A stretch of 64,000 bases of DNA from Candidatus Thalassarchaeaceae archaeon (GCA_943841885.1 CALSZZ010000001.1:382253-446252), one strand, 5' to 3'. Shown: positions 2,712 to 18,239, numbered from the stretch's first letter. Numbers and translations: made by a program. Notes: a model not told the origin generated them from the letters alone.

Positions 2712-3251
2712 TTATTTTGAGTCAAATACATATTTTCTATAATGATTTAATTCTTCAATACTCCCTCTAACGTCATCCATTGCTCTATGACCCGAACGTT
2801 TACTAAATCTCGGAGAATTAGGATACCATCGCCTGATTACTTCTTTTATTGAAGTTACATCTACACTTCTATAATGGAAGAAATCATGTAACTCAGGCAT
2901 ATATTTTCTAAGAAAACGACGATCTTGACCAATTGTATTACCACATAATGGAGGTACGCCTTCGAGACAATGTAGTCTTAGGAATTCTATTGTTTGCTCT
3001 TCTGCTTCTTTCATTAGGACGCCTTTATTTCTCACCCTTTCTATTAATCCATTTTCAGTGTGATGGGTTTGATTCCATTCATCCATTTTATCCAACTCTT
3101 CTTCAGGTTGAGATATTGCTAAACTTGGCCCTTCGGCTACAATATTAAGATTACCTTCTGTAACTATAGTGGCTATTTCAATAATGGTATTTTCATGTGG
3201 ATCTAGTCCTGTCATTTCTAAGTCTAGCCATACTAAACGCTGTTCGACCAT
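2712..3251 (-). CDS. orn: oligoribonuclease (DEDDh exonuclease)
   Basis: LVWLDLEMTGL, PLCGNTIGQDRRFL, HYRSVDVTS and HRAMDDVRGSIEEL motifs typical of Orn; start at MVEQRL removes the overlap with the divergent MFS gene. Confidence 0.92.
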   Translation of the reverse strand: MVEQRLVWLDLEMTGLDPHENTIIEIATIVTEGNLNIVAEGPSLAISQPEEELDKMDEWNQTHHTENGLIERVRNKGVLMKEAEEQTIEFLRLHCLEGVPPLCGNTIGQDRRFLRKYMPELHDFFHYRSVDVTSIKEVIRRWYPNSPRFSKRSGHRAMDDVRGSIEELNHYRKYVFDSK

Positions 3252-3329
3252 GTTTCTATCCTCTGACCTTACCTTCTTAGGTATTCTCATCATAGTAGAC
3301 ATGATATGTGTTAGTATATGCGCAAAGCC

Positions 3330-4574
3330 GTGTCTGATGTTGGGTACTTTCAACTTTTGAAAGAGAATAAGCCATTTCGTCAGTTATTTACGGCAGATAT
3401 GATTTCATACGTTGGAGATTGGTTCACAGTAATTGCACTATTTATCCTAGCGGGCGAGGCTACTGATAACTCTCCACTTGCAATTGCAGGAGTACTAGTG
3501 ACCAGAAGTTTTGGCATGGCATTATGTGATCCTTTTTCAGGTATGTTTGCTGATAGATATTCCAGGAAAGGATTGATGATGTTATCTAATTTTATTTCTC
3601 TTATTGCGCTAGTTAGTGTTGTTTCACTTGACTTATTAGATAGTTTATTTTCATATTATTTACTTGCCTTTGTGATGGTTTTAGCAAAGTCCTTATTCGA
3701 CCCTGCAGAATTCTCATATTTACCAAAGATTTGTACAAATGATGAATTAATTACAGCTAATGCATTGGGCTCAGGAGGTTGGTCAGTTGCCTTGGGAATA
3801 GGGGCAGGAATAGGTGGCCTTACGATTTCAGAATTTGGAGTTACTACCGCTTTGTGGATAGACTGTACAACTTTCTTATTTTCAATATTATTAATTTCAA
3901 GATTACCCCCTGGCGGTCCCGATAATCCAGTGGAAGGCATATTAACTCCGAAAAAAGCCATAGTTGAAATTATTTCTGGATGGAAATATATTCGAGGTAG
4001 ACCTCCTGTAAGAAGAGTTGTATTTGCTAAAGGAATGTGGGCTGCAGGTGGTGGAGCACAAGTTTTTTTACTAATATTAATTGGAATGGAGACAAACTTT
4101 GGAGAACTTGCAGCGGGAATAGGTTTGCTGTTTATGATTAGAGGATTTGGATCTGGATTTGGTCCAATAATTGCCAAGCCATTGATGAAACAAAAAAATA
4201 TTCTTCCTTACCTTTTAGGAGTTTCAGTGGGTGTTTCAGGAATTTTTTATGTTTTTGTTTCACAAATAGAATGGACTAATTTGTTACTAGTATTTGTTTT
4301 CTGTGCGCATGCTAGTAGTGGAGTTAATTGGGTTTATTCAACGACAATGCTCCAAAAACGTTCAGATGATGAATGGAGAGGAAGAGTCGCTGGAACTGAT
4401 TATTTAGTAATAACATTCACAATGGGGGCTTCAGCACTTGCTGCTGCCCTGATACTGGAGAATCAACTTTTGGAGTTAAGAGAAGTAATAGCGATTACTG
4501 GTACAATACAGATTGGTCTAGGAATATTATGGGTATTACTGGCATCTCCTAGTGAAAAGAAAATTTTTATTTGA
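3330..4574 (+). CDS. MFS transporter (H+ antiporter / macrolide-efflux-like)
   Basis: About 12 hydrophobic segments, GMFADRYSRK motif A, EWRGRV in the C-half; start at GTG 3330 or ATG 3318. Confidence 0.88.
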   Translation: MSDVGYFQLLKENKPFRQLFTADMISYVGDWFTVIALFILAGEATDNSPLAIAGVLVTRSFGMALCDPFSGMFADRYSRKGLMMLSNFISLIALVSVVSLDLLDSLFSYYLLAFVMVLAKSLFDPAEFSYLPKICTNDELITANALGSGGWSVALGIGAGIGGLTISEFGVTTALWIDCTTFLFSILLISRLPPGGPDNPVEGILTPKKAIVEIISGWKYIRGRPPVRRVVFAKGMWAAGGGAQVFLLILIGMETNFGELAAGIGLLFMIRGFGSGFGPIIAKPLMKQKNILPYLLGVSVGVSGIFYVFVSQIEWTNLLLVFVFCAHASSGVNWVYSTTMLQKRSDDEWRGRVAGTDYLVITFTMGASALAAALILENQLLELREVIAITGTIQIGLGILWVLLASPSEKKIFI

Positions 4575-4597: not shown

Positions 4598-5197
4598 TTA
4601 ATCTTTTTGAATTAGTACTCCATCATTAGAAAACCAGTTTTCTTCTCCTGCATCAAAAAATATTAAATCACAATTTGGACATCCGTCTATTTCTATAATT
4701 TTTTGATGTCCTGACCATGCTTCAATTTTTTCCAAAATATCTGGCTTCAACAAACTACGTTCCTTAGCATGATGTATGAATATTATATCCACTTTTTTCA
4801 TTTTATCCATGCAATCTATACAGTCAAAGTCACTAGTTTTGACAGAAGAGGATAATTTTTCTCGGATAAAATCCGCTGATTGAAAAACTCCAAAAATACC
4901 TTTGTTAAGCCTTTTATCTATTGATTTAGATTCAAAGATAATACCATTGCATGTTCCACAAAATAAATCTGAAGTAACTAGTGAGGTGAGATGTAGGCCC
5001 AGAAAAAGAAGTGCCACACCCGGAAATAATTCTACGATAAAAGTAATAATTTCTGAATTAGTTAATACACCTTCGTTCTCTATGGAATTAAGGGATTTAA
5101 GGGCTAAGGCAATTCCAGCGAGGCCCAAGAATGTCAAGGGAGTTCCGAGAGGGTGGAAAACTCTTTTTTGTTCTTTCGATATTCCATTGTCCCACAA
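4598..5197 (-). CDS. membrane protein with C-terminal Zn-ribbon (zf-TFIIB-like) domain
   Basis: Two TM segments then CGTC, CIDC and IEIDGCPNCDLIFFDAGE. Confidence 0.6.
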   Translation of the reverse strand: MWDNGISKEQKRVFHPLGTPLTFLGLAGIALALKSLNSIENEGVLTNSEIITFIVELFPGVALLFLGLHLTSLVTSDLFCGTCNGIIFESKSIDKRLNKGIFGVFQSADFIREKLSSSVKTSDFDCIDCMDKMKKVDIIFIHHAKERSLLKPDILEKIEAWSGHQKIIEIDGCPNCDLIFFDAGEENWFSNDGVLIQKD

Positions 5198-5297: not shown

Positions 5298-7847
5298 TTA
5301 TGATGATTCGACAAGTCCGGAACGTTTTGCCCAAACAACTAACACACTAGGTAAAACCCAGACAGAAGATAGGAATGAGAATAGAATTGTCAGAGCCGTT
5401 ATTGTCCCAAATTGTTGCATTGGGACCAATATCGACTGAGATAATACTCCAAATGATAGAACTGTCGTCATGGCAGCTCCGAATAAAGAAAATCCAGTAT
5501 TCTTTACAGTATTATTTACTGCATCTTCCAATGAATGATGTTCTTCTAACTCTTCAATAAATCTATGAGAGATATGTATAGCATATGTCACGCCAAGGCC
5601 GATAGTCAGTGCCCCTATTAGCGTAGTCATAACATTCAGACTGTAACCAATAACAACCATGGTTCCAAGAATCCAAGTTAATACTAAAATTACAGGAATC
5701 ATAGTCAGAAGTCCTAGAATTGGTTGACCATCATTCAACCAGAATACTGCTGTTAAAACAATAAATGATAGGATAATAGTATAACCAATAGACTGAATCA
5801 TTGTAGAGGTTATTGTATCCATTACTACAACAAAAACAGGAGGTTGTCCAGTTGCAACTACACTAATTCCACTACTAGATTCTATATCTTGTAGAGGTTT
5901 AATATCTCTATTCAATTCATCACTGACTTGAATGTAATCAGTATTTCTTGACTTTGTACCAACCATGATGTATGAAACTGTATATTGATCAGTAGTTTCA
6001 TCTAAATAAATGAAATTTTGTATCATATAAGGCTGATTTTCAAACATCCAATCTAAAAGTTCCTTCACATCAGAATCTGTATCAGGTATTCCATCTTCAT
6101 CGACATCAGAAGCATTGAACATTTCTCCGAATGTAGAATTCATTTCTACCGTGAGATTCATAATTACCAAAGGAGATAATACTTTTTCCTCATCATCTGT
6201 AACATATGTTCTGTCTCTATTATCAGTGTCTGGTATATTTGTTAAAAGTTCATCTTGTGTTTCTTGCATTGCTCTAAAGACTGCCGTGGTGGCTACATCT
6301 TCTCCACTAATATAAATAAAAGAGGTTTCACCTACACTAGAACCAAAATTATCTTGGAAATAATTGAACTCCTGGACAATTTCTACATCTTGAGGTAAAA
6401 AGTCTTCAGCATTAAATTCAGATGAAATTTGACTTCCTCCGTAACCTGCAACAATAGTTAGAACCACAAAGAAAGCAATTGCTCTCTCCGGAAATTTAAG
6501 TGCTAAAAATGACCCAATACTCATGAATCTGTCCGAAATAGCATTACTCTTACTACCAATTTTTTTGGCTTTTATTGCCTTGATATTCGATTCTGATAAA
6601 ATATCAATACCGTTTTTTTGTCTTCTTCTATCTATTAATATCCTACATGCGGGAAGGAATGTTACAAATATTATGAAAGCAGATAATATTCCTAATCCAG
6701 TTTGAATGCCAAATTCCCTTATTGGCGTTATATCTGAAGAAAGATTTGAGAAGAAACCAATCATTGTAGTAATGGTAGCAAATAATAATGCAGAACCTAC
6801 AGATACTATTGAAGTCTCATTGGCTTTATCTAAATCTCCATCTTCAACAACTTCTTCACGATATCTCATAGTCAGATGTATTCCATAGTCAACTCCTAAT
6901 CCAATTAGTAAGATTGGTATTATTGTCAAAAAGAAACTTGCTTCAAAGTCTAAAATGATACCAAATGCAAATGTCCAGATGATGGAAATTGTTAGTGCCA
7001 CCAGAGTTAAACTAACATCTGTGAAAGACCTGAATGTTAGTCCTAGGACTAGTAAAATGAAACCTAATACAAATATACCTAAACGATTATTTACATCATT
7101 GTTAAACTCAGTATTTACCTCTTGATCTATAGCACCTACTCCAAGAGAATAGACTAATGTGTTTTCAAAGATATTTTCTCTGAAGTCTACAGCTACTTCA
7201 CCCATTAATTTTTCTACTTTAGTGATTCTTTCTAGAGCCTGTACAGAATTCTCACCATCACGGTTACTATTGTCGAATGTTAGAATTACAACAGTCGAAG
7301 TTGCCAAAGCGTCACCATCTCCCTCTCCAAGAAGATTGGATACAGCATCTGCCAGGTTTTCATCATTTTTTGCTTCTCTGAGCGCATTTTTTATTTGCTC
7401 ATCACTCTTACCTTCATAGAGTTCTTTTAGTTCTGATAAAGTACTCTCGTTAGCATCAAATTGTCCTGCTAGTAAGGTTGGTAATGAAACAATATTATTT
7501 GTTATATTTTCAGGATCGAGTAAGCTACCTAGTATTTCCTCATTATTCACAAAAGATATTTCTAAATCTAGGATTTCTACAAATACTGAACTAGTTACTA
7601 CATCATCTGATTTTATTAAAGTAACAACGGGATATTCGGTCTGAAATTTTTCTCCAATATCTGTTAATGCATCAACAACTTCATTCTCTGGTATGAAACC
7701 GGCTTGACTAGGATCTTCTGCTGGTGGAGCATTTATTAAAACAACTAACATTAAGCTAGTAACTGCTAAAATTGCTACAACCACTTTTACTGGATTTCGG
7801 TTAACTGGTCCAGCTACATTATGTAGGATGTCCATAGCGTCCGGCAA
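5298..7847 (-). CDS. MMPL/RND family transporter (archaeal HAE3-like)
   Basis: Two repeats of TM + large loop + 5 TM; GLGVDYGIH and GLGVTYAIH motifs. Confidence 0.9.
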   Translation of the reverse strand: MPDAMDILHNVAGPVNRNPVKVVVAILAVTSLMLVVLINAPPAEDPSQAGFIPENEVVDALTDIGEKFQTEYPVVTLIKSDDVVTSSVFVEILDLEISFVNNEEILGSLLDPENITNNIVSLPTLLAGQFDANESTLSELKELYEGKSDEQIKNALREAKNDENLADAVSNLLGEGDGDALATSTVVILTFDNSNRDGENSVQALERITKVEKLMGEVAVDFRENIFENTLVYSLGVGAIDQEVNTEFNNDVNNRLGIFVLGFILLVLGLTFRSFTDVSLTLVALTISIIWTFAFGIILDFEASFFLTIIPILLIGLGVDYGIHLTMRYREEVVEDGDLDKANETSIVSVGSALLFATITTMIGFFSNLSSDITPIREFGIQTGLGILSAFIIFVTFLPACRILIDRRRQKNGIDILSESNIKAIKAKKIGSKSNAISDRFMSIGSFLALKFPERAIAFFVVLTIVAGYGGSQISSEFNAEDFLPQDVEIVQEFNYFQDNFGSSVGETSFIYISGEDVATTAVFRAMQETQDELLTNIPDTDNRDRTYVTDDEEKVLSPLVIMNLTVEMNSTFGEMFNASDVDEDGIPDTDSDVKELLDWMFENQPYMIQNFIYLDETTDQYTVSYIMVGTKSRNTDYIQVSDELNRDIKPLQDIESSSGISVVATGQPPVFVVVMDTITSTMIQSIGYTIILSFIVLTAVFWLNDGQPILGLLTMIPVILVLTWILGTMVVIGYSLNVMTTLIGALTIGLGVTYAIHISHRFIEELEEHHSLEDAVNNTVKNTGFSLFGAAMTTVLSFGVLSQSILVPMQQFGTITALTILFSFLSSVWVLPSVLVVWAKRSGLVESS

Positions 7848-8010: not shown

Positions 8011-8835
8011 CTAGTAATAATTAAGATGAAAAATTGCTAATAACGTGACGAAAATAGATGGTGCTAAGGTACGCATCAAAGTAGTGATTATCTGGACATA
8101 AGTTCTCTTTGTGTAATTTTTAAATTCATCTTCTAAAAATTCATCAAGTTCTGAGAGTCCAAAAGTTGCCACCTCAGTTATCTTTTCACTTACCGTATTA
8201 GCAATTGCACCTCCTAAATTTCCTAAAAAAGTAGTTGCTGGAGATATTAGAGATGATAAAAAGTCAGACGAAGTACTGCCGGCCTTCTGGACATTTTTTG
8301 GTAACTTGGAAACTGAAAGATTTTTTATTTTGATTAGACCTTTTCTAGCTTGTACTAACAAATTTAGTTTATCTAAACCAGTGATTCTTTTTAGTGAGGA
8401 TAATGATTCTGCCATGGCATCTAATTCATTAATTGCGTAAATCAGTTTTTTGTTGGTATTATCTGAATTCTTATAATCGACATATAACCAAGTTAACATT
8501 CCAATTATGAAAAAAGTCAAGATGGTTGAATTCATCTGTGTTATTAAAACATCATCAACTCCAAAATAATACATAATAGGAATTCCAAGTATTGCAGGAA
8601 GTAAGGCTAGAGAAATTTCGGTTATTACAAATTGATTAATTCCTTTAATTTCTAATTCTCTGATTAGCTTTAATCCAGCAACTGGTTGACCATCAAAAAA
8701 TTTGGAAATTTCTTTTATTGGCCTCAGGACTAAAAAAATCCTTATTACAAAAGATAATAGTAAAACAACAAAAGTCCAATCTTTTAATGTTTCAGGAGGA
8801 AACGAAGGTAATAAATCAAAAATCATACCAATCAT
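8011..8835 (-). CDS. hypothetical membrane protein with amphipathic 11-mer segment
   Basis: 274 aa; three N-terminal TM helices, helical soluble region, C-terminal TM; last gene of the small-protein cluster. Confidence 0.7.
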   Translation of the reverse strand: MIGMIFDLLPSFPPETLKDWTFVVLLLSFVIRIFLVLRPIKEISKFFDGQPVAGLKLIRELEIKGINQFVITEISLALLPAILGIPIMYYFGVDDVLITQMNSTILTFFIIGMLTWLYVDYKNSDNTNKKLIYAINELDAMAESLSSLKRITGLDKLNLLVQARKGLIKIKNLSVSKLPKNVQKAGSTSSDFLSSLISPATTFLGNLGGAIANTVSEKITEVATFGLSELDEFLEDEFKNYTKRTYVQIITTLMRTLAPSIFVTLLAIFHLNYY

Positions 8836-8881
8836 CTCAAGCAGAACTGAATCATCCTAAAGGTGATTAGGATAATAAGTT

Positions 8882-9067
8882 TTAATTTTCTATTTGTCCT
8901 AATTTTGTATAGATAGAATCTACAATGTCATCATTATATTGGCATATCATGGTTCCATATTTTCTTCCAAATTTATAACCTGCGCCAGCGGAACCGGCAA
9001 TAGCCATGTAATTGCTGGCTTTCCATGCAAGTGTAATAACTCCCAAGATAGTTAACTCTCTAATCAT
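8882..9067 (-). CDS. small Gly/Ala-rich hydrophobic protein (61 aa)
   Basis: Shine-Dalgarno AAGGAGGT upstream; ATG overlaps the upstream TAA (TAATG). Confidence 0.75.
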   Translation of the reverse strand: MIRELTILGVITLAWKASNYMAIAGSAGAGYKFGRKYGTMICQYNDDIVDSIYTKLGQIEN

Positions 9068-9246
9068 TATTTCTTACCTCCTTTTATTTTGGATTTTTTT
9101 ACTTCCTTTATTTCTTGTATATCATTGCCTAGGTTTTCATCTAATCCGGCATAGTGCCTGAAACTACTTACTGTAGCTCCGACCATTGCTCCACCGACTC
9201 CAATTGCCATACAAGTCATTCCTAATGCAAATATTTTCATTACCAT
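9067..9246 (-). CDS. small glycine-zipper-like hydrophobic protein (59 aa)
   Basis: Manual translation MVMKIFALGMTCMAIGVGGAMVGATVSSFRHYAGLDENLGNDIQEIKEVKKSKIKGGKK; AAGGAG upstream; fills the gap between its neighbours exactly; missing from ORF track. Confidence 0.75.
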   Translation of the reverse strand: MVMKIFALGMTCMAIGVGGAMVGATVSSFRHYAGLDENLGNDIQEIKEVKKSKIKGGKK

Positions 9247-9248
9247 AT

Positions 9249-9527
9249 TTATTTCTCCTTTTCTTTTTTATCCTTCTTATTTCCCTTGACAATTCTTGAC
9301 GCACTATCTCCAATCGTCCCTACAACGTTACCAGCAGTCTCTACTGTAACCTTCGTGACTTCTCCGGTTGCATCAATGATCGCACTTATTGCGCGTCCGC
9401 CGCCTACTGCAAGATGTACAACAGTTTCTTCACCTGCATTTACTAATTCTTTAACAGCTGAGGAGAACTCATCAACAAGTGCATTCAGTCCTTTAGTGAC
9501 TTTGTCTACGGGTTTTGGTCCAGACAC
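9249..9527 (-). CDS. small amphipathic 11-mer-repeat protein (92 aa)
   Basis: Six consecutive 11-residue repeats, Lys-rich tail; TATA-like TTATATA about 25 nt upstream of the GTG. Confidence 0.75.
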   Translation of the reverse strand: MSGPKPVDKVTKGLNALVDEFSSAVKELVNAGEETVVHLAVGGGRAISAIIDATGEVTKVTVETAGNVVGTIGDSASRIVKGNKKDKKEKEK

Positions 9528-9570
9528 GTTTATCGGATTGGGGGCCTGTATATAATATTCGGAGGGATGA

Positions 9571-9596
9571 TATAGGGGGTTAAATAACCTCCTATA
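9571..9596. promoter_or_regulatory. 26-bp imperfect palindrome (candidate operator or terminator hairpin)
   Basis: TATAGGGGGTTA-AA-TAACCTCCTATA, 12-bp arms with one mismatch, between the regulator stop and the small-protein promoter. Confidence 0.6.
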
Positions 9597-9605
9597 TTCT
9601 TATTT

Positions 9606-9956
9606 TTATATCTTCATATCATCTGAAGGAAGGTAAAAGAAGTCTTTAGGATAAATCTCCATTCTTTGGCCCAATTGGATAAATCTACCAATATCGGAAC
9701 GCCACATTCTCCCATTCTCGGTCACTTCCCAATGGACTACAGGATGCCCTCCTCTGCCTAATTTTCCTGAGTCTTGATTTTCAATTAATTCCATTTTAAC
9801 GAGTTTATTTAATAGATTTTTCAATTCCTTCCTGTCTATACCGGTAGCTCTTTCAATCCTAACTAATTGTTTTGTATTTGATTCATTTGAACGCATTCTT
9901 GAAAGGTAAAGAAGTATCCTGTATAATGTAACTGGAAAGTCCCTCTGCTTCTTCAT
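9606..9956 (-). CDS. winged-helix transcriptional regulator
   Basis: HTH-like IERATGIDRKELKNLLNKLVKMELI plus wing ending WEVTENGR; start at MKKQRD preferred. Confidence 0.72.
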   Translation of the reverse strand: MKKQRDFPVTLYRILLYLSRMRSNESNTKQLVRIERATGIDRKELKNLLNKLVKMELIENQDSGKLGRGGHPVVHWEVTENGRMWRSDIGRFIQLGQRMEIYPKDFFYLPSDDMKI

Positions 9957-10027
9957 GTGATTGACGATGGAAAGTAAATAGTAGAAAAACAATTCTATTA
10001 TAGAGGGATGAATATATACATATATCA

Positions 10028-10462: not shown

Positions 10463-10732
10463 ATATAATGTAAATTAGAATATGGATTATCCCAATGATA
10501 GAATAAGTATCTATTATTGCCTCCATTACTCAAAAACAACATATCCTCTCCATCCGGATAGTATTGATGTTAACATAATTAATATCATTATCAATGGTCT
10601 AAAGTTTCTCATGGCTTTGCGTCTTAATGAATAGATATAATCATTTTACCTACCGATATCATATTGATGAATGCAAGTTAAGTAATTTTGGAATGAGATA
10701 ATACTATAATCTTCATTCATTTACTCTGCACA

Positions 10733-11402
10733 ATGCATATATCGGCTAAGATATTTTTTTCCATCGGCGGAGTCCTACTAGTAATTGGAGTTATTATGAT
10801 TGGTTTGGGCGGTTCTTCAGTGAATGATGTTGGAAACTGGGATCCCATACAAGAAAGTGAATGGAATGGCGATAATGGGGACTACGCATATGAAGGAAAA
10901 GAAATGTTAGTGATGGTTAGAGATAGCGTTAGTTGTGAAAGCTTTGAAATGACTATGGAAAATGAAACAGGTACAATTACTTCTCTTGAGGTTAAATGTA
11001 CTGAAGAGAATTCAGCTATTCCAGAAGGGTATGAAGATGATCCTCCTGGATGGTACCATATGGCCTCCATTAACAGTTGGGAATACAGACAGGGGCAATT
11101 ATAGAATAGAGTCAAGTTCTGAAGTATATCTTGTAGATACTTGGAAAATTATAACGGACGAAATTGGTGAAGGTATATCCGTTTTCTTTAGTTTTGCATT
11201 CGGTGGCTTTACAATATGTTGTGGATTTTTCTTCTTGATAACAGGGGGAATTTTAGCTGTTGCAGTTAAGACACCTGAAAAACAACAGACGTATATTGAA
11301 CAATCAGAAGCAACAATAACAGTTACTTCTCCTTTAGAACAAGTTGAAAATATCTCAGAAGAGGTTTCTGGAAATTCAGGAGATCCCGAATGGTGGGGGT
11401 GA
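10733..11402 (+). pseudogene. frameshifted membrane protein (N-terminal TM, extracellular domain, C-terminal TM, acidic tail)
   Basis: ORFs 10733..11104 and 10962..11402 join into one protein (...EYRQGNYRIESS...) if one G is removed from GGGG at 11092-11095; could be a sequencing error. Confidence 0.7.
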
Positions 11403-11623
11403 AAAGGAAGAAGGTAATTGATAAACTACTTCTCATATCAAAATATATTGATATATTTTTCAATCTAAATAGTAGATTTATGAGGATGCATATGAATGAT
11501 TGAGTTTATCTTAAAAGGAATTAAAATCATAGATTAAAAAATTAAAATACAATAAAAAGATTAAAAAAATTGTATAATTTTAATACAATTCATAATAAAT
11601 AGTATAACTTTGTAACAACTTGC

Positions 11624-15152: not shown

Positions 15153-18100
15153 TCAGCATCCTATTCCATCAACAAGATTGTTAAGATTCTTGTTCATCAT
15201 GGACAGGTAGTCATCGTTAACGTCACTTGGAGCCATTTCCATGGTATACAATATCTCTATTGATACTCCTGTATCTTCAACAATACTATTTACTGCGTTT
15301 TGGTTAGTATATTCTTCAACGAAAAGAACTGTTATTCCCTTTTCATTAATTGCCTCAGTAACTTTGATTATATCCTGTGGAGAAGGTTCTCCTTCAGGAT
15401 CTAATCCATGCAGAGTAATAATGTCGATATCATAGCTTACGGAAATGTAGGAGTATGCATTGTGGTTTGCTACTATTGTTTTATCGTGGCCTCCTGCAAC
15501 ACAAGTTCCACCTTCTCCGAATGCGTTCTCATAATTATTATCCAAAGTTTGCAATTGTGCTTTGTATGAATCAGCATTAGCGGTAAAATCACTAGTCCCC
15601 TCAGGGAAAGTTAAGATTAGTTTCTCTAGAACAACATTAAGTTGTGCTTCAAAAGCCTCTGGGTCGAGCCAGCTGTGAGGATCATATGTGAAAGACTCAC
15701 CATCCTCTGCAACTATTGAACTATCCCCGTCTTCATCACCATGATCGTCATGATCATCACCATGATCACTGTGATCATCATGAGCACCTGCTCCTTCTTG
15801 AGCGATTGGCTCAATATCGGTTCCTGCAGAGTCTTTCAGATAATGCGCATCACGCTCAAATTCGGTAGGTACGTATTGAGCATACATTGCCATACCTGAT
15901 ATTCCAGATGTATCAATAGTGAATAATGAATCATCTCCAGTACCAACATGTAATTCGAAACAGGAACCAGTCGCAGCAATTGAGGTCATGGTTTCTCCAT
16001 CTTCAACAACAGTACAATCTCCTTCTATTAGTGCTTCAACACCAGATTCTAGGGAGTGCATGTTCTCTTCAGTAGGTGAATCCGTTGGTATTAGTACAAG
16101 TCTCATAGTAGGATCAGCATAGTCGCCACCAACTTTCTGCATGGACCATGTATGAGTAGCGTCACTCATCTCGAACATACCTGCCCACTCGAAGGGACCA
16201 GCTCCATGGTCGTCATGATCTTCATGCCCTCCTTCTCCCTTCATTACAAAGATTTCAACATCTTTAGGTAAAGCAAACCCATAATCGCCCTCTGCCTCAA
16301 TATGGATAACAACTGCTCCCACTTCATGGTGTTCCTCTTCATCGGAGTGATTGTCTCCAGCAGTCCACATCAAGCCAGCAGCTTGACAGTCGGATTCAGT
16401 TGTAAGACTCATATTTACAGTGTGAGTACTCATGTCATAGCAGACCATTTCATCATGATCATCGTGGTCATCATGAGCGTGATCCATTTGACTCCAAGGG
16501 AATCCACCACAGCCAGTATCTAAGTCCGTAGCAATCGCGTTTTCAGCAGATAGTGCATCAGCCTCGGTTTCAGCAGCGTAAGTTGACTGGCAATAATACA
16601 GTTCTCCAGAGTCCCATGTCCAATCATATTTAGACCAAAGCCCAGGGCTCCATGAGGCTGCACCATTCTCCGCAACAGCCCACATCTCATCATTATCATA
16701 ATGAGTGATAGTATTATTATTCCAGGAATCAGAATCTATAATTTGACTTGAGTTCCATTCATCCATCCATTCTCCTTCAATAGAAATTGCCTCAAAGAAA
16801 GAAAGTGTATGTGCAACTAGTTCAGCATGGATTTCTCGTAGAACATGATCATCATGCCCTAACCACATGTCCCCTGCAGCTTCACACTCTTCCTCAGTTG
16901 ATTCATAGTTCTCATGTGCCTCTGCGTTATGGCACATTTCATCACCATGATCGTCATGATCATCACCATGATCACTGTGATCATCATGAGCACCTGCTCC
17001 TTCTTGAGCGATTGGCTCAATATCGGTTCCTGCAGAGTCTTTCAGATAATGCGCATCACGCTCAAATTCGGTAGGTACGTATTGAGCATACATTGCCATA
17101 CCTGATATTCCAGATGTATCAATAGTGAATAATGAATCATCTCCAGTACCAACATGTAATTCGAAACAGGAACCAGTCGCAGCAATTGAGGTCATGGTTT
17201 CTCCATCTTCAACAACAGTACAATCTCCTTCTATTAGTGCTTCAACACCAGATTCTAGGGAGTGCATGTTCTCTTCAGTAGGTGAATCCGTTGGTATTAG
17301 TACAAGTCTCATAGTAGGATCAGCATAGTCGCCACCAACTTTCTGCATGGACCATGTATGAGTAGCGTCACTCATCTCGAACATACCTGCCCACTCGAAG
17401 GGACCAGCTCCATGGCCATGGTCATGATGGTCATGATGAGCATGTCCTCCTAACATTTTGAGCACGGCCATATTGAAGTCTTCATCATGTTCTGACTCAA
17501 ACTCTAGAATGTGCTCTCCTTCTTCCATGTGAAATACCTGAATTGTTGTATCTGCCGGACAAGCCTCTGGGTTTTCGAAAGTCATCTCAGCTTCAGAGTG
17601 TTCATGGCCATCATGATCATCATGGTCATCATGGTCATCGGTATCATCATGGTCATCATGGTCCTCAGTATCATTATGATCATCATGGTCATCATGGTCA
17701 TCATGGTCATCCTCTGACATCATTGCAAGTGTAGTACTTTCGAATGGTCCATTATTCAATAGCTCACATAGGTTAGATACTAACATTGATTCATAATCGA
17801 GAGTAGTTTGCCCTGATGGCATTGCGTGTGTCATGTAGGAGGGAGGTGCATTATCAAGAGAGGAAAGTGTAGAATCTACCCAAGGCTCAAGATTTAATCC
17901 ATGATAGAAGAAAAGGTCGCTGTTTTGTAAACGAACTATATCTGCCACTGAAGGCTCGTAATCATGGACAGGAATATTATTTTGGCTCATGTATTCAACT
18001 TTTACATGATCTCCTGCTACTGCAGAAACTAATTCTCCGACATGGTATGTTGAAACCATTACATTACCAAAAGGTAAAATTTGGTCATCTGATGTTGTAT

Positions 18101-18239
18101 TATTACCAGTATCAGTATTGTCTTCAATATCGTTATCAGCAGGTAAAGGGGCATCTTCTTCAGCATCTAGGCACCCCGCCATGCTTGATATAATCATAAT
18201 CAAACTTACCATTAGTGCTCTATTCCATTGCGTGTTCAT
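15153..18239 (-). CDS. znuA: giant Zn/Mn ABC substrate-binding lipoprotein with His/Asp-rich multi-domain insertion
   Basis: SMAGC lipobox; cluster A-I motifs PVHDYEPS, YDPHSWLDP, NHNAYSY and EGEPSPQD; about 700-aa insert between the first and second His motifs. Confidence 0.88.
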   Translation of the reverse strand: MNTQWNRALMVSLIMIISSMAGCLDAEEDAPLPADNDIEDNTDTGNNTTSDDQILPFGNVMVSTYHVGELVSAVAGDHVKVEYMSQNNIPVHDYEPSVADIVRLQNSDLFFYHGLNLEPWVDSTLSSLDNAPPSYMTHAMPSGQTTLDYESMLVSNLCELLNNGPFESTTLAMMSEDDHDDHDDHDDHNDTEDHDDHDDTDDHDDHDDHDGHEHSEAEMTFENPEACPADTTIQVFHMEEGEHILEFESEHDEDFNMAVLKMLGGHAHHDHHDHGHGAGPFEWAGMFEMSDATHTWSMQKVGGDYADPTMRLVLIPTDSPTEENMHSLESGVEALIEGDCTVVEDGETMTSIAATGSCFELHVGTGDDSLFTIDTSGISGMAMYAQYVPTEFERDAHYLKDSAGTDIEPIAQEGAGAHDDHSDHGDDHDDHGDEMCHNAEAHENYESTEEECEAAGDMWLGHDDHVLREIHAELVAHTLSFFEAISIEGEWMDEWNSSQIIDSDSWNNNTITHYDNDEMWAVAENGAASWSPGLWSKYDWTWDSGELYYCQSTYAAETEADALSAENAIATDLDTGCGGFPWSQMDHAHDDHDDHDEMVCYDMSTHTVNMSLTTESDCQAAGLMWTAGDNHSDEEEHHEVGAVVIHIEAEGDYGFALPKDVEIFVMKGEGGHEDHDDHGAGPFEWAGMFEMSDATHTWSMQKVGGDYADPTMRLVLIPTDSPTEENMHSLESGVEALIEGDCTVVEDGETMTSIAATGSCFELHVGTGDDSLFTIDTSGISGMAMYAQYVPTEFERDAHYLKDSAGTDIEPIAQEGAGAHDDHSDHGDDHDDHGDEDGDSSIVAEDGESFTYDPHSWLDPEAFEAQLNVVLEKLILTFPEGTSDFTANADSYKAQLQTLDNNYENAFGEGGTCVAGGHDKTIVANHNAYSYISVSYDIDIITLHGLDPEGEPSPQDIIKVTEAINEKGITVLFVEEYTNQNAVNSIVEDTGVSIEILYTMEMAPSDVNDDYLSMMNKNLNNLVDGIGC
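15732..16209. repeat. 478-bp intragenic direct repeat, copy 1
   Basis: Matches 16938..17415 at offset 1206; no mismatch seen by eye. Confidence 0.92.
16938..17415. repeat. 478-bp intragenic direct repeat, copy 2
   Basis: Encodes the same HGAGPFEWAGMFE...HDDHGDE module as 15732..16209. Confidence 0.92.
17609..17712. repeat. degenerate 9-bp tandem repeat (TCATCATGG)n encoding (HDD)n
   Basis: Visible tandem array; protein reads DDHDDHDDHDDHNDTEDHDDHDD... Confidence 0.85.

Follow-up and report, generated by a model that had tools for sequence, protein, structure and literature searches.

A stretch of 64,000 nucleotides from Candidatus Thalassarchaeaceae archaeon (GCA_943841885.1 CALSZZ010000001.1:382253-446252), here called the window, carries at positions 8011-9956 five genes that run head to tail on the minus strand and encode, in this order, a small regulator, three proteins named after their lengths in amino acids (p92, p59 and p61) and a membrane protein, p274. 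The first four constitute an accessory cassette that is found in some Poseidoniales only, and the anatomy of the locus is very probably that of such a cassette, with its dedicated regulator, accompanying a near-core protein with four transmembrane (TM) helices. A preliminary description of this DNA, generated by a model, had proposed a single operon of five co-oriented genes; the genes, their coordinates and their common strand were confirmed, and the single operon was not, because p274 is near-core and mostly occurs without the other four genes. We tentatively favour, as the function of the cassette, a self-regulated membrane-face module of conflict type that works with p274. The module is compact, strongly constrained and compatible with expression, and it comprises a putative 20-bp operator with its regulator, a 92-aa hendecad-repeat protein, two peptides and p274.

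The linkage of the five genes was determined by scanning about 60 p274 loci, in which open frames were compared with hidden Markov models (HMMs) of all five proteins. The order regulator-p92-p59-p61-(slot)-p274, in which the slot is a variable space before p274, was found in every one of the 22 genomes whose sequence extends past p61, so that the cassette and a p274-type gene are conserved together, as a common system had been expected to be. Of 61 relatives, 12 carry p92; across the order, 57 of 401 genomes do so, always with a single copy, and these carriers include 10 of 199 genomes of one family (f1), 46 of 199 of another (f3) and 12 of 26 genera. Strong homologues of the regulator (E <= 1.1e-54) occur in 20 of 401 phylum-sample genomes, all of them in the two cassette-bearing families, and the other 10 regulator matches are generic (E 1.5e-4 to 8.2e-4). 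In its occurrence, the regulator is strictly tied to the rest of the cassette. The p274 family was detected in 32 of 36 f1 genomes, 39 of 58 f3 genomes and 8 of 10 genomes of a sister family, f4 (weakly, and over the N-terminal half only), and in none of 296 other genomes of the phylum sample; 32 p274 genes stand alone, each with 1.2 kb or more of visible upstream sequence. Since p274 is near-core and mostly lacks the other four genes, the unit is a four-gene add-on.

In f3 the site is identical with and without the cassette and consists of a divergent 120-aa frame, the optional cassette, p274 and a further gene; from its translation we take the divergent frame to be cupin-like, and the gene after p274, as its translation reads, is presumably that of phosphoglycerate mutase (gpmA). 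In other loci, the DNA before the regulator contains a conserved stretch that also reads as a divergent coding gene, which in cassette-free f3 genomes is the 120-aa frame. In one genome (G044), a 54-aa N-terminal p274-type fragment (L010 2183-2347, equivalent to G044:C3:265335-265487) lies directly before the regulator and ends at the palindrome described below, and it looks like the scar of an insertion or duplication. Four genomes (G018, G030, G083 and G117) have a second, tandem p274 paralogue behind the cassette; the tandem paralogues of loci L059, L060, L068 and L069 are deeply different, and the p274 of the window is of the second-copy type. A quick maximum-likelihood tree of 62 p274 proteins interleaves cassette-linked and stand-alone genes of f3, and the starred branches of this tree force at least five changes of cassette label; the f1 stand-alone genes form one clade of 12, and a deep second clade unites the p274 of the window with the tandem second copies. 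A FastTree tree of the regulator plus p92 from 22 genomes nests the f3 genus g17 within the f1 clade (support 0.94-1.0), and at least one transfer between families has therefore taken place. Many contigs of other assemblies end at the cassette locus, which fits strain-level variation and proves nothing. As a separate observation, one f1 genome (locus L057, contig G015:C9, 12 kb) has a p274 nearly identical to f3 sequences (branch length 0.013), which is either bin contamination or a recent transfer. A pair of genes at 2712-4574, for an RNase T-like exonuclease and an MFS transporter, also flanks stand-alone p274 in other f1 genomes; the open reading frame (ORF) at 4598-5197, which occupies the position of the stand-alone f1 p274, was considered as a p274 relative and ruled out by comparison.

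The slot between p61 and p274 measures 46 nt in the window (8836-8881, minus strand), where it is empty, and varies among relatives. In genus g7 (G018 and G030) it holds a third TM peptide, 55-58 aa long and of Gly-zipper type. In four genomes of four genera and both families (G083, G211, G303 and G169) it holds a protein of 124-159 aa that has an HNH motif and, at its N-terminus, a hydrophobic helix; the PF01844 scores of G083 (24.7 bits) and G169 (23.2) pass the cut-off of 21.4, those of G211 (20.2) and G303 (20.4) lie just under it, and the signature CxxC...HH...N...CxxCH is visible in all four. The slot of G083 also encodes a 143-aa HEPN-like protein (E 8.5e-4, below cut-off). PADLOC gave only weak HNH-motif matches for the slot proteins (E >= 0.005).

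The p92 protein (9249-9527, minus strand; 92 aa, with a GTG start where its relatives have ATG at the same position) is a cytoplasmic protein and the most conserved part of the cassette. It consists of six 11-residue repeats and a Lys-rich tail, and has no hydrophobic segment. The division into six 11-mers had been read by eye in the preliminary description, and hydrophobic-moment analysis substantiates it: residues 11-77 have a single coherent moment that is greatest at 98 degrees (360 x 3/11); its size, 0.40, compares with 0.17 +/- 0.04 for the best helical angle of shuffled sequences and was reached by 0 of 2000 shuffles. The centre (residues 30-77) is still significant when taken alone (p = 0.001), and a peak at 98-99 degrees is present in 36 of 36 aligned family members. 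The similar run that had been pointed out in the 274-aa protein is likewise periodic, with residues 190-233 peaking at 96 degrees (a fraction of 0.0005 of 2000 shuffles). On an 11-position wheel, positions 2, 6, 10, 3 and 7 of p92 form a non-polar arc of V, I, L, T, A and G, with small residues in mid-arc; the moment is 0.39-0.43 over 67-76 residues on the Fauchere-Pliska scale, the values of which were entered by hand. For comparison, the part of PMC5889406 on which we draw tabulates these moments: alpha-synuclein, 0.30; perilipin 3, 0.35; apoA-I, 0.39; perilipin 4, 0.257.

The amphipathic stretch of p92 has a net charge of -5 with few interfacial lysines, and the 31 invariant columns among 36 sequences (63-83% identity) are mostly polar-face residues; a net-acidic stretch with an invariant polar face points to specific protein contacts, not to a generic lipid coat. 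A hendecad coiled coil would be compatible with the a-d-e-h spacing as well. AlphaFold2 models p92 at a mean pLDDT (predicted local confidence) of 68, with a helix at residues 6-29, strands at 35-41, 45-51 and 57-64 and then a poorly supported helix, and the three-strand portion (residues 35-64) has a pLDDT of about 80. Structure searches with this model gave no match in the Protein Data Bank (PDB) at E <= 0.001 with Foldseek, at that mean pLDDT, and none at Z >= 5 among 48,161 chains with VIA-align.

Database searches place p92 in a family of its own. A word-indexed search retrieved 274 p92 clusters, nearly all nameless or 'hypothetical', and the organisms, where given, are Poseidoniales, Thalassarchaeaceae or Poseidonia save for a few odd labels. 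An exhaustive profile search of 1.84 billion representatives returned 30 proteins, of which 27 are p92 family members or fragments and three are long repeat proteins (one with NHL beta-propeller repeats) that we took as spurious. A sequence profile of p92 against the PDB gave repeat-summed matches to designed armadillo proteins and to a stretch of phage tape-measure protein (E 6.6e-4), which we read as compositional. Among metagenome proteins, the first 68 residues of p92 are fused to ankyrin repeats in P0128, and p92 is fused to a p59-like peptide in P0127; both are probably frameshifts or chimeric assemblies. Scans of all five proteins against Pfam, NCBIfam, PHROGs and PADLOC gave nothing above curated cut-offs. 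Perilipin, synuclein and apolipoprotein families were absent from the Pfam matches of p92 (E <= 1), from those of the 36 members (E <= 10, HMMER filters discarding most matches above 0.1) and from PDB sequences (E <= 10), and phasin, Csm and PspA/IM30 families were not listed in the Pfam scans of p92 and the 36 members. The Senescence domain (PF06911), which targets spartin and ERD7 to lipid droplets according to the portions consulted of PMC10415183 and PMC8079945, was matched by 11 of 36 members with a best E of 2.2e-4, the displayed members scoring 12-17 bits against a cut-off of 24.6. TOBE profiles were matched by 22 (PF03459) and 15 (PF08402) of 36 members (best E 0.002), below the cut-offs of 22.3 and 21 bits and over half of the profile. 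The nearest named language-model neighbours outside the family are the chlorosome envelope proteins CsmC (0.88) and CsmB (0.81), scores that shuffled proteins reach, and the corresponding HMMs (PF11098 and PF27499) listed no match for p92 or the 36 members. CsmC, CsmB and the Senescence domain thus share with p92 a small, A/G/V/T-rich, lipid-surface character and are nearest to it by language model or sub-threshold HMM, but the scores lie within the shuffled-protein range, the Pfam matches are below cut-off and no Csm family was listed. Literature searches returned no paper on this or a comparable cassette; the passages of PMC9723583 that were covered make no mention of it, the supplementary tables being outside the search. 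None of the cassette proteins matched a characterized unrelated family, an outcome that would have spoken against the original proposal, and as judged by sequence comparison the p92, p59, p61 and p274 families are orphans of Poseidoniales, with the closest known systems serving as analogies only, not relatives.

The partners of p92 are membrane proteins. The Gly/Ala-rich p59 peptide (9067-9246, minus strand) is of single-pass type, its N-terminal hydrophobic helix being clear (Kyte-Doolittle >= 1.6 at residues 1-26); it also has a charged tail and, in a juxtamembrane position, a conserved S.FRHY motif. The small hydrophobic peptide p61 (8882-9067, minus strand) carries a conserved G.GY..GRKYG..C..D motif; because its hydrophobicity in the window is under the 1.6 threshold, its TM helix is marginal only. 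The hydrophobic Gly/Ala-rich stretches previously ascribed to both peptides are thus clear in p59 and no more than marginal in the window copy of p61. The p274 protein (8011-8835, minus strand) has four hydrophobic helices, an N-terminal FPP motif and, between TM3 and TM4, a basic helical domain of about 130 aa that holds the 11/3-periodic run. Basic stretches follow the helices of p59, p61 and p274, and by the positive-inside rule the tails of the two peptides and the 130-aa domain are probably cytoplasmic; p92, without a hydrophobic segment, would be in the cytoplasm as well. For p274, no Pfam family was found in the window copy or 15 relatives, the ESM Atlas gave no named neighbour, the homologue search yielded only 5 close relatives, and the model (pLDDT 57.5) was too poor for a fold search. 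A complex prediction of the regulator, p59 and p61 against p92 from our own alignments scored 0.00, which counts neither way as controls were not run.

The small genes are tightly spaced. Only 2 nt separate the p92 stop from the p59 start, p59 and p61 overlap as TAATG, through which p61 is translationally coupled to p59, and AGGAG precedes p59 and AGGAGGT precedes p61; the tight spacing and the Shine-Dalgarno sites reported earlier are therefore real features of the sequence. The regulator (9606-9956, minus strand) is a winged-helix-like protein of 116 aa with a conserved C-terminal tail, YYP..FFYLPSD; all homologues start at the position equivalent to its ATG at 9956, and a longer GTG frame extends to 10028. 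Its Pfam matches comprise ten winged-helix families (E 6e-4 to 0.21), none of which reaches its cut-off (DUF4423, 20.1 bits against 30; MarR_2, 17.8 against 27), and the regulator has 48 invariant columns in 10 sequences.

Directly behind the regulator stop lies an inverted repeat, AGGGGGTT-N4-AACCCCCT, about 14 nt upstream of the A/T box of p92. This palindrome (9574-9593; AGGGGGTT-N4-AACCTCCT on the plus strand) is the likely operator, predicted to be bound by the regulator. It is unique at up to 1 mismatch in the 1.49-Mb genome (80% complete), which has one other site with 2 mismatches and a 6-nt spacer. Within the regulator-p92 spacer, it occurs at up to 3 mismatches in 12 of 20 genomes, compared with 0 of 2000 shuffles of the spacers; the remaining 8 fall below that match, and most of them have a variant palindrome at the same place. 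Directly at the start of the regulator gene, 11 of 20 genomes have a second copy (up to 4 mismatches); the genus of the window is not among them. The A/T box itself is TATA-like (AATATTATATA; 9549-9559, minus strand), and its centre lies about 27 nt ahead of the p92 start codon; an A/T box has the same relative position in 12 of 12 loci compared. Its closeness to the start suggests that p92 is transcribed from a promoter of its own into a leaderless or near-leaderless mRNA.

The p92 gene is under extreme purifying selection. In five pairs per gene, the ratio of nonsynonymous to synonymous substitution rates (dN/dS) was 0.016-0.079 for p92, 0.15-0.35 for p59 and 0.14-0.48 for p61, one pair being saturated for p61 and one for p92. 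Because gene order is conserved across two families and dN/dS is low, the cassette ORFs are more than chance reading frames. Parts of the stretch are contained in 16 RNA-labelled runs, and contigs of four runs from three studies were aligned to the window: a contig of 1019 nt equals 8945-9963, from the regulator to part of p61, with no mismatch, and further contigs cover 8840-9584 and 9205-9509. Such contigs give neither strand nor expression level. Regarding the transcription anticipated in the preliminary description, the locus is thus present in RNA-library contigs, for which DNA carry-over is a possible source. Contig depth was seemingly greater on p92-p59-p61 than on p274 in two low-coverage RNA runs, an observation not used here as contigs cannot rank genes.

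Our data suggest, tentatively, a module of conflict type, favoured on account of its patchy distribution, turnover and transfer, the swappable HNH/HEPN-like slot, the small autoregulator, the Gly-zipper peptides and the tandem paralogues. The simplest model would be a complex at the cytoplasmic membrane face. A dimer of the regulator on the palindrome would set cassette expression, and p59 and p61 would be inserted N-out/C-in; their aromatic-basic tails together with the amphipathic domain of p274 would form a platform on which p92 could dock through its invariant polar face. The p92 protein may then act as a conserved scaffold or sensor and p274 as a guarded or co-opted host membrane protein, with the Gly-zipper peptides and, in some lineages, the membrane-anchored HNH nuclease as putative effectors in virus exclusion, abortive infection or strain antagonism. 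We regard action at the membrane face together with p274 as evenly balanced between true and false, and the conflict role as a possibility on the doubtful side. Membrane proteins plus an optional HNH protein, patchy distribution, turnover and a swappable effector slot are reminiscent of known defence systems, since Zorya type II includes an HNH protein and Kiwa a 4-TM sensor; in contrast to these, the cassette has no PADLOC match, its components are much smaller, its host protein p274 is near-core and p92 is highly conserved.

Several observations weigh against a conflict module. PADLOC-DB 2.0 gave a best match of E 0.0058, on a generic winged helix, and none for p59, p61 and p274, and IMG/VR viral contigs contained no p92 relative. 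The p92 gene evolves very slowly and largely tracks host families, which is unusual for arms-race genes, and the f3 locus is a fixed chromosomal site amid housekeeping genes, not a defence island. The cassette of the window has no nuclease, the nuclease form is found in only 4 genomes, and a BLASTP comparison between the N-terminal helix of the HNH proteins and the third g7 peptide gave no significant similarity (E 3.5). In addition, the flanks of the locus are also covered in two RNA runs, as DNA carry-over would allow, and the contacts between the proteins are predictions from their sequences.

The principal alternative is a membrane-surface homeostasis or stress module, in which disturbed lipid packing would cause p92 to fold, as a peripheral protein, onto the cytoplasmic face of the isoprenoid membrane or onto the amphipathic domain of p274, with p59 and p61 serving as anchors or sensors and the regulator closing a feedback loop. 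This would accommodate the 11/3 periodicity, coherent over 67 residues and in 36 of 36 members, the arc rich in small residues and the partners, all of them membrane proteins with basic cytoplasmic stretches, as well as the dedicated autoregulator; CsmC (0.88) and CsmB (0.81) as nearest language-model clusters are leads only. According to the consulted part of PMC5889406, 3-11 helices known to bind lipids have moments comparable to that of p92, and adsorption of alpha-synuclein is reportedly promoted by methyl-branched diphytanoyl lipids. This reading, whose logic resembles that of the phage-shock system, has its limits in p92 itself, whose amphipathic region carries a net charge of -5 with few interfacial lysines and an almost invariant polar face, in the strands modelled at residues 35-64 with a pLDDT of about 80, and in the dispensability of the cassette in about 86% of the order's genomes; the HNH nuclease in the slot of four genomes has no place in such a picture. 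Phage-shock (Psp) operons do present a similar cast of proteins, in which a dedicated regulator and one small, peripheral, helical protein are joined by three membrane proteins, two of them small and single-pass, but p92 has no listed PspA/IM30, ESCRT-III or other family match, the regulator is a small winged helix and not an enhancer-binding ATPase, and the cassette is accessory, with a nuclease in some versions. We consider this alternative rather unlikely. A further reading, again of conflict type and in our view unlikely, would make p92 the first prokaryotic synuclein/perilipin-type 3-11 helix, lying reversibly on the cytoplasmic face of the isoprenoid membrane, reading its state and licensing membrane effectors, either the Gly-zipper peptides or a membrane-anchored HNH nuclease, around a core host membrane protein.

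The lipid-body coat of the preliminary description, with p92 as a perilipin- or phasin-like coat of a lipid droplet, granule or vesicle and the small peptides as monolayer anchors, gained no support and appears highly improbable. It draws on the same periodicity, on the sub-threshold Senescence-domain matches in 11 of 36 members and on the extreme conservation that is typical of self-assembling coat proteins. No neutral-lipid or polyhydroxyalkanoate synthesis gene was found in or near the cassette, however, and PhaC_N was found in none of five cassette genomes (92-94% complete) with a positive control; the corresponding WS/DGAT search was uninformative, as its control matched nowhere. No perilipin, synuclein, apolipoprotein, phasin or Csm family is in the Pfam lists, p59, p61 and p274 resemble bilayer-spanning proteins, a storage-lipid coat would leave the nuclease-bearing variants unexplained, and the acidic amphipathic face, near-invariant polar face and central strands of p92 are also contrary to it. 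The resemblance of p92 to the 3-11 helices of perilipin, alpha-synuclein and apolipoproteins has two sides: they share an 11-residue period in phase over about 67 residues, a weakly hydrophobic V/T/A/G face and similar moments (0.39-0.43 for p92 against 0.30-0.39 in the table consulted in PMC5889406), whereas p92 has no match to these families, is net acidic and not lysine-flanked, has a near-invariant polar face, predicted central strands, dedicated membrane partners and a regulator, and its binding to lipid is hypothetical. Only marginally better placed, and still improbable, is a multi-peptide membrane toxin of archaeocin type with p274 as its immunity protein. This was the other suggestion of the preliminary description, and it fits the distribution better than a coat does: two translationally coupled Gly/Ala-rich peptides stand beside a putative immunity gene that is far commoner than they are, as in an 'orphan immunity' pattern, tandem p274 paralogues follow some cassettes, and HNH and HEPN-like domains are common toxin modules. 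Class IIb bacteriocin loci similarly combine two co-translated peptides with Gly-rich helices, a multi-TM immunity protein and a regulator. Unlike such loci, 22 of 22 cassettes lack a leader peptide, a processing protease and an exporter, the basic residues after the helices predict that the peptides are retained with their tails inside the cell, and there is an extra conserved cytoplasmic protein, p92, which has no signal sequence and would be left without a role; moreover, the stand-alone f1 p274 genes form a single 12-row clade, as a core gene would. Finally, a selfish homing cassette, in which the HNH gene drives the cassette into the 5' end of p274 and takes the remaining genes along as passengers, would account for the fixed insertion point before p274, the 5' p274 remnant retained in G044, the inter-family transfer and the many contigs that break at the locus. 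Yet HNH is missing in 18 of 22 cassettes, the four core genes are under purifying selection that is very strong in p92, and an N-terminal hydrophobic helix is odd for a homing enzyme, which makes this the least probable explanation of all.

Few uncultured members of the plankton are as abundant as Marine Group II archaea, whose envelope biology and virus defence are, to our knowledge, almost entirely unexplored. If the cassette is a defence or exclusion system, it would be of a new type and would help to explain strain-level variation in Marine Group II populations. If p92 binds membranes, the 3-11 helix principle would extend to archaeal isoprenoid lipids, and if it licenses effectors as described above, a new, archaea-specific kind of membrane-guarding conflict system would be at hand. 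On either reading, the cassette would provide a first handle on the p274 family, which is carried by most Poseidoniales.

In the window, the five genes are flanked by a GNAT acetyltransferase gene upstream and an MMPL/RND-type transporter gene downstream, with housekeeping genes as wider neighbours. The G+C content gave no island signal at the locus, and Rfam gave no match in the window or in 8 loci. The transporter gene (5298-7847, minus strand) encodes an 849-aa protein of MMPL/sterol-sensing type with no orthologue and only paralogues of 26-34% identity in 5 same-genus genomes, and that flank of the locus is therefore variable too; in a within-genus comparison for an empty site, the MMPL DNA was without a match in the same 5 genomes. 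Beside the GNAT gene, a stretch of about 1 kb (10556-11535) has the appearance of an insert that varies between strains: at 10556, the contigs of runs X1, X2 and X10 diverge into the same foreign continuation, and those of X1 and X2 rejoin at 11535. Overlapping ORFs at 10733-11104 and 10962-11402 (10733-11402, plus strand), which lie in different frames, resemble one membrane-protein gene split by a single extra base; the base at 11092 is absent from RNA-library contigs of two studies (X1 and X10), and its absence would fuse the two frames. Farther away, a 1028-aa protein (15153-18239, minus strand) has a ZnuA-type metal-binding domain confined to its last 220 residues and no Pfam match in its first 800, and its gene adjoins those of a Zn/Mn ABC transporter and a NikR-like regulator.

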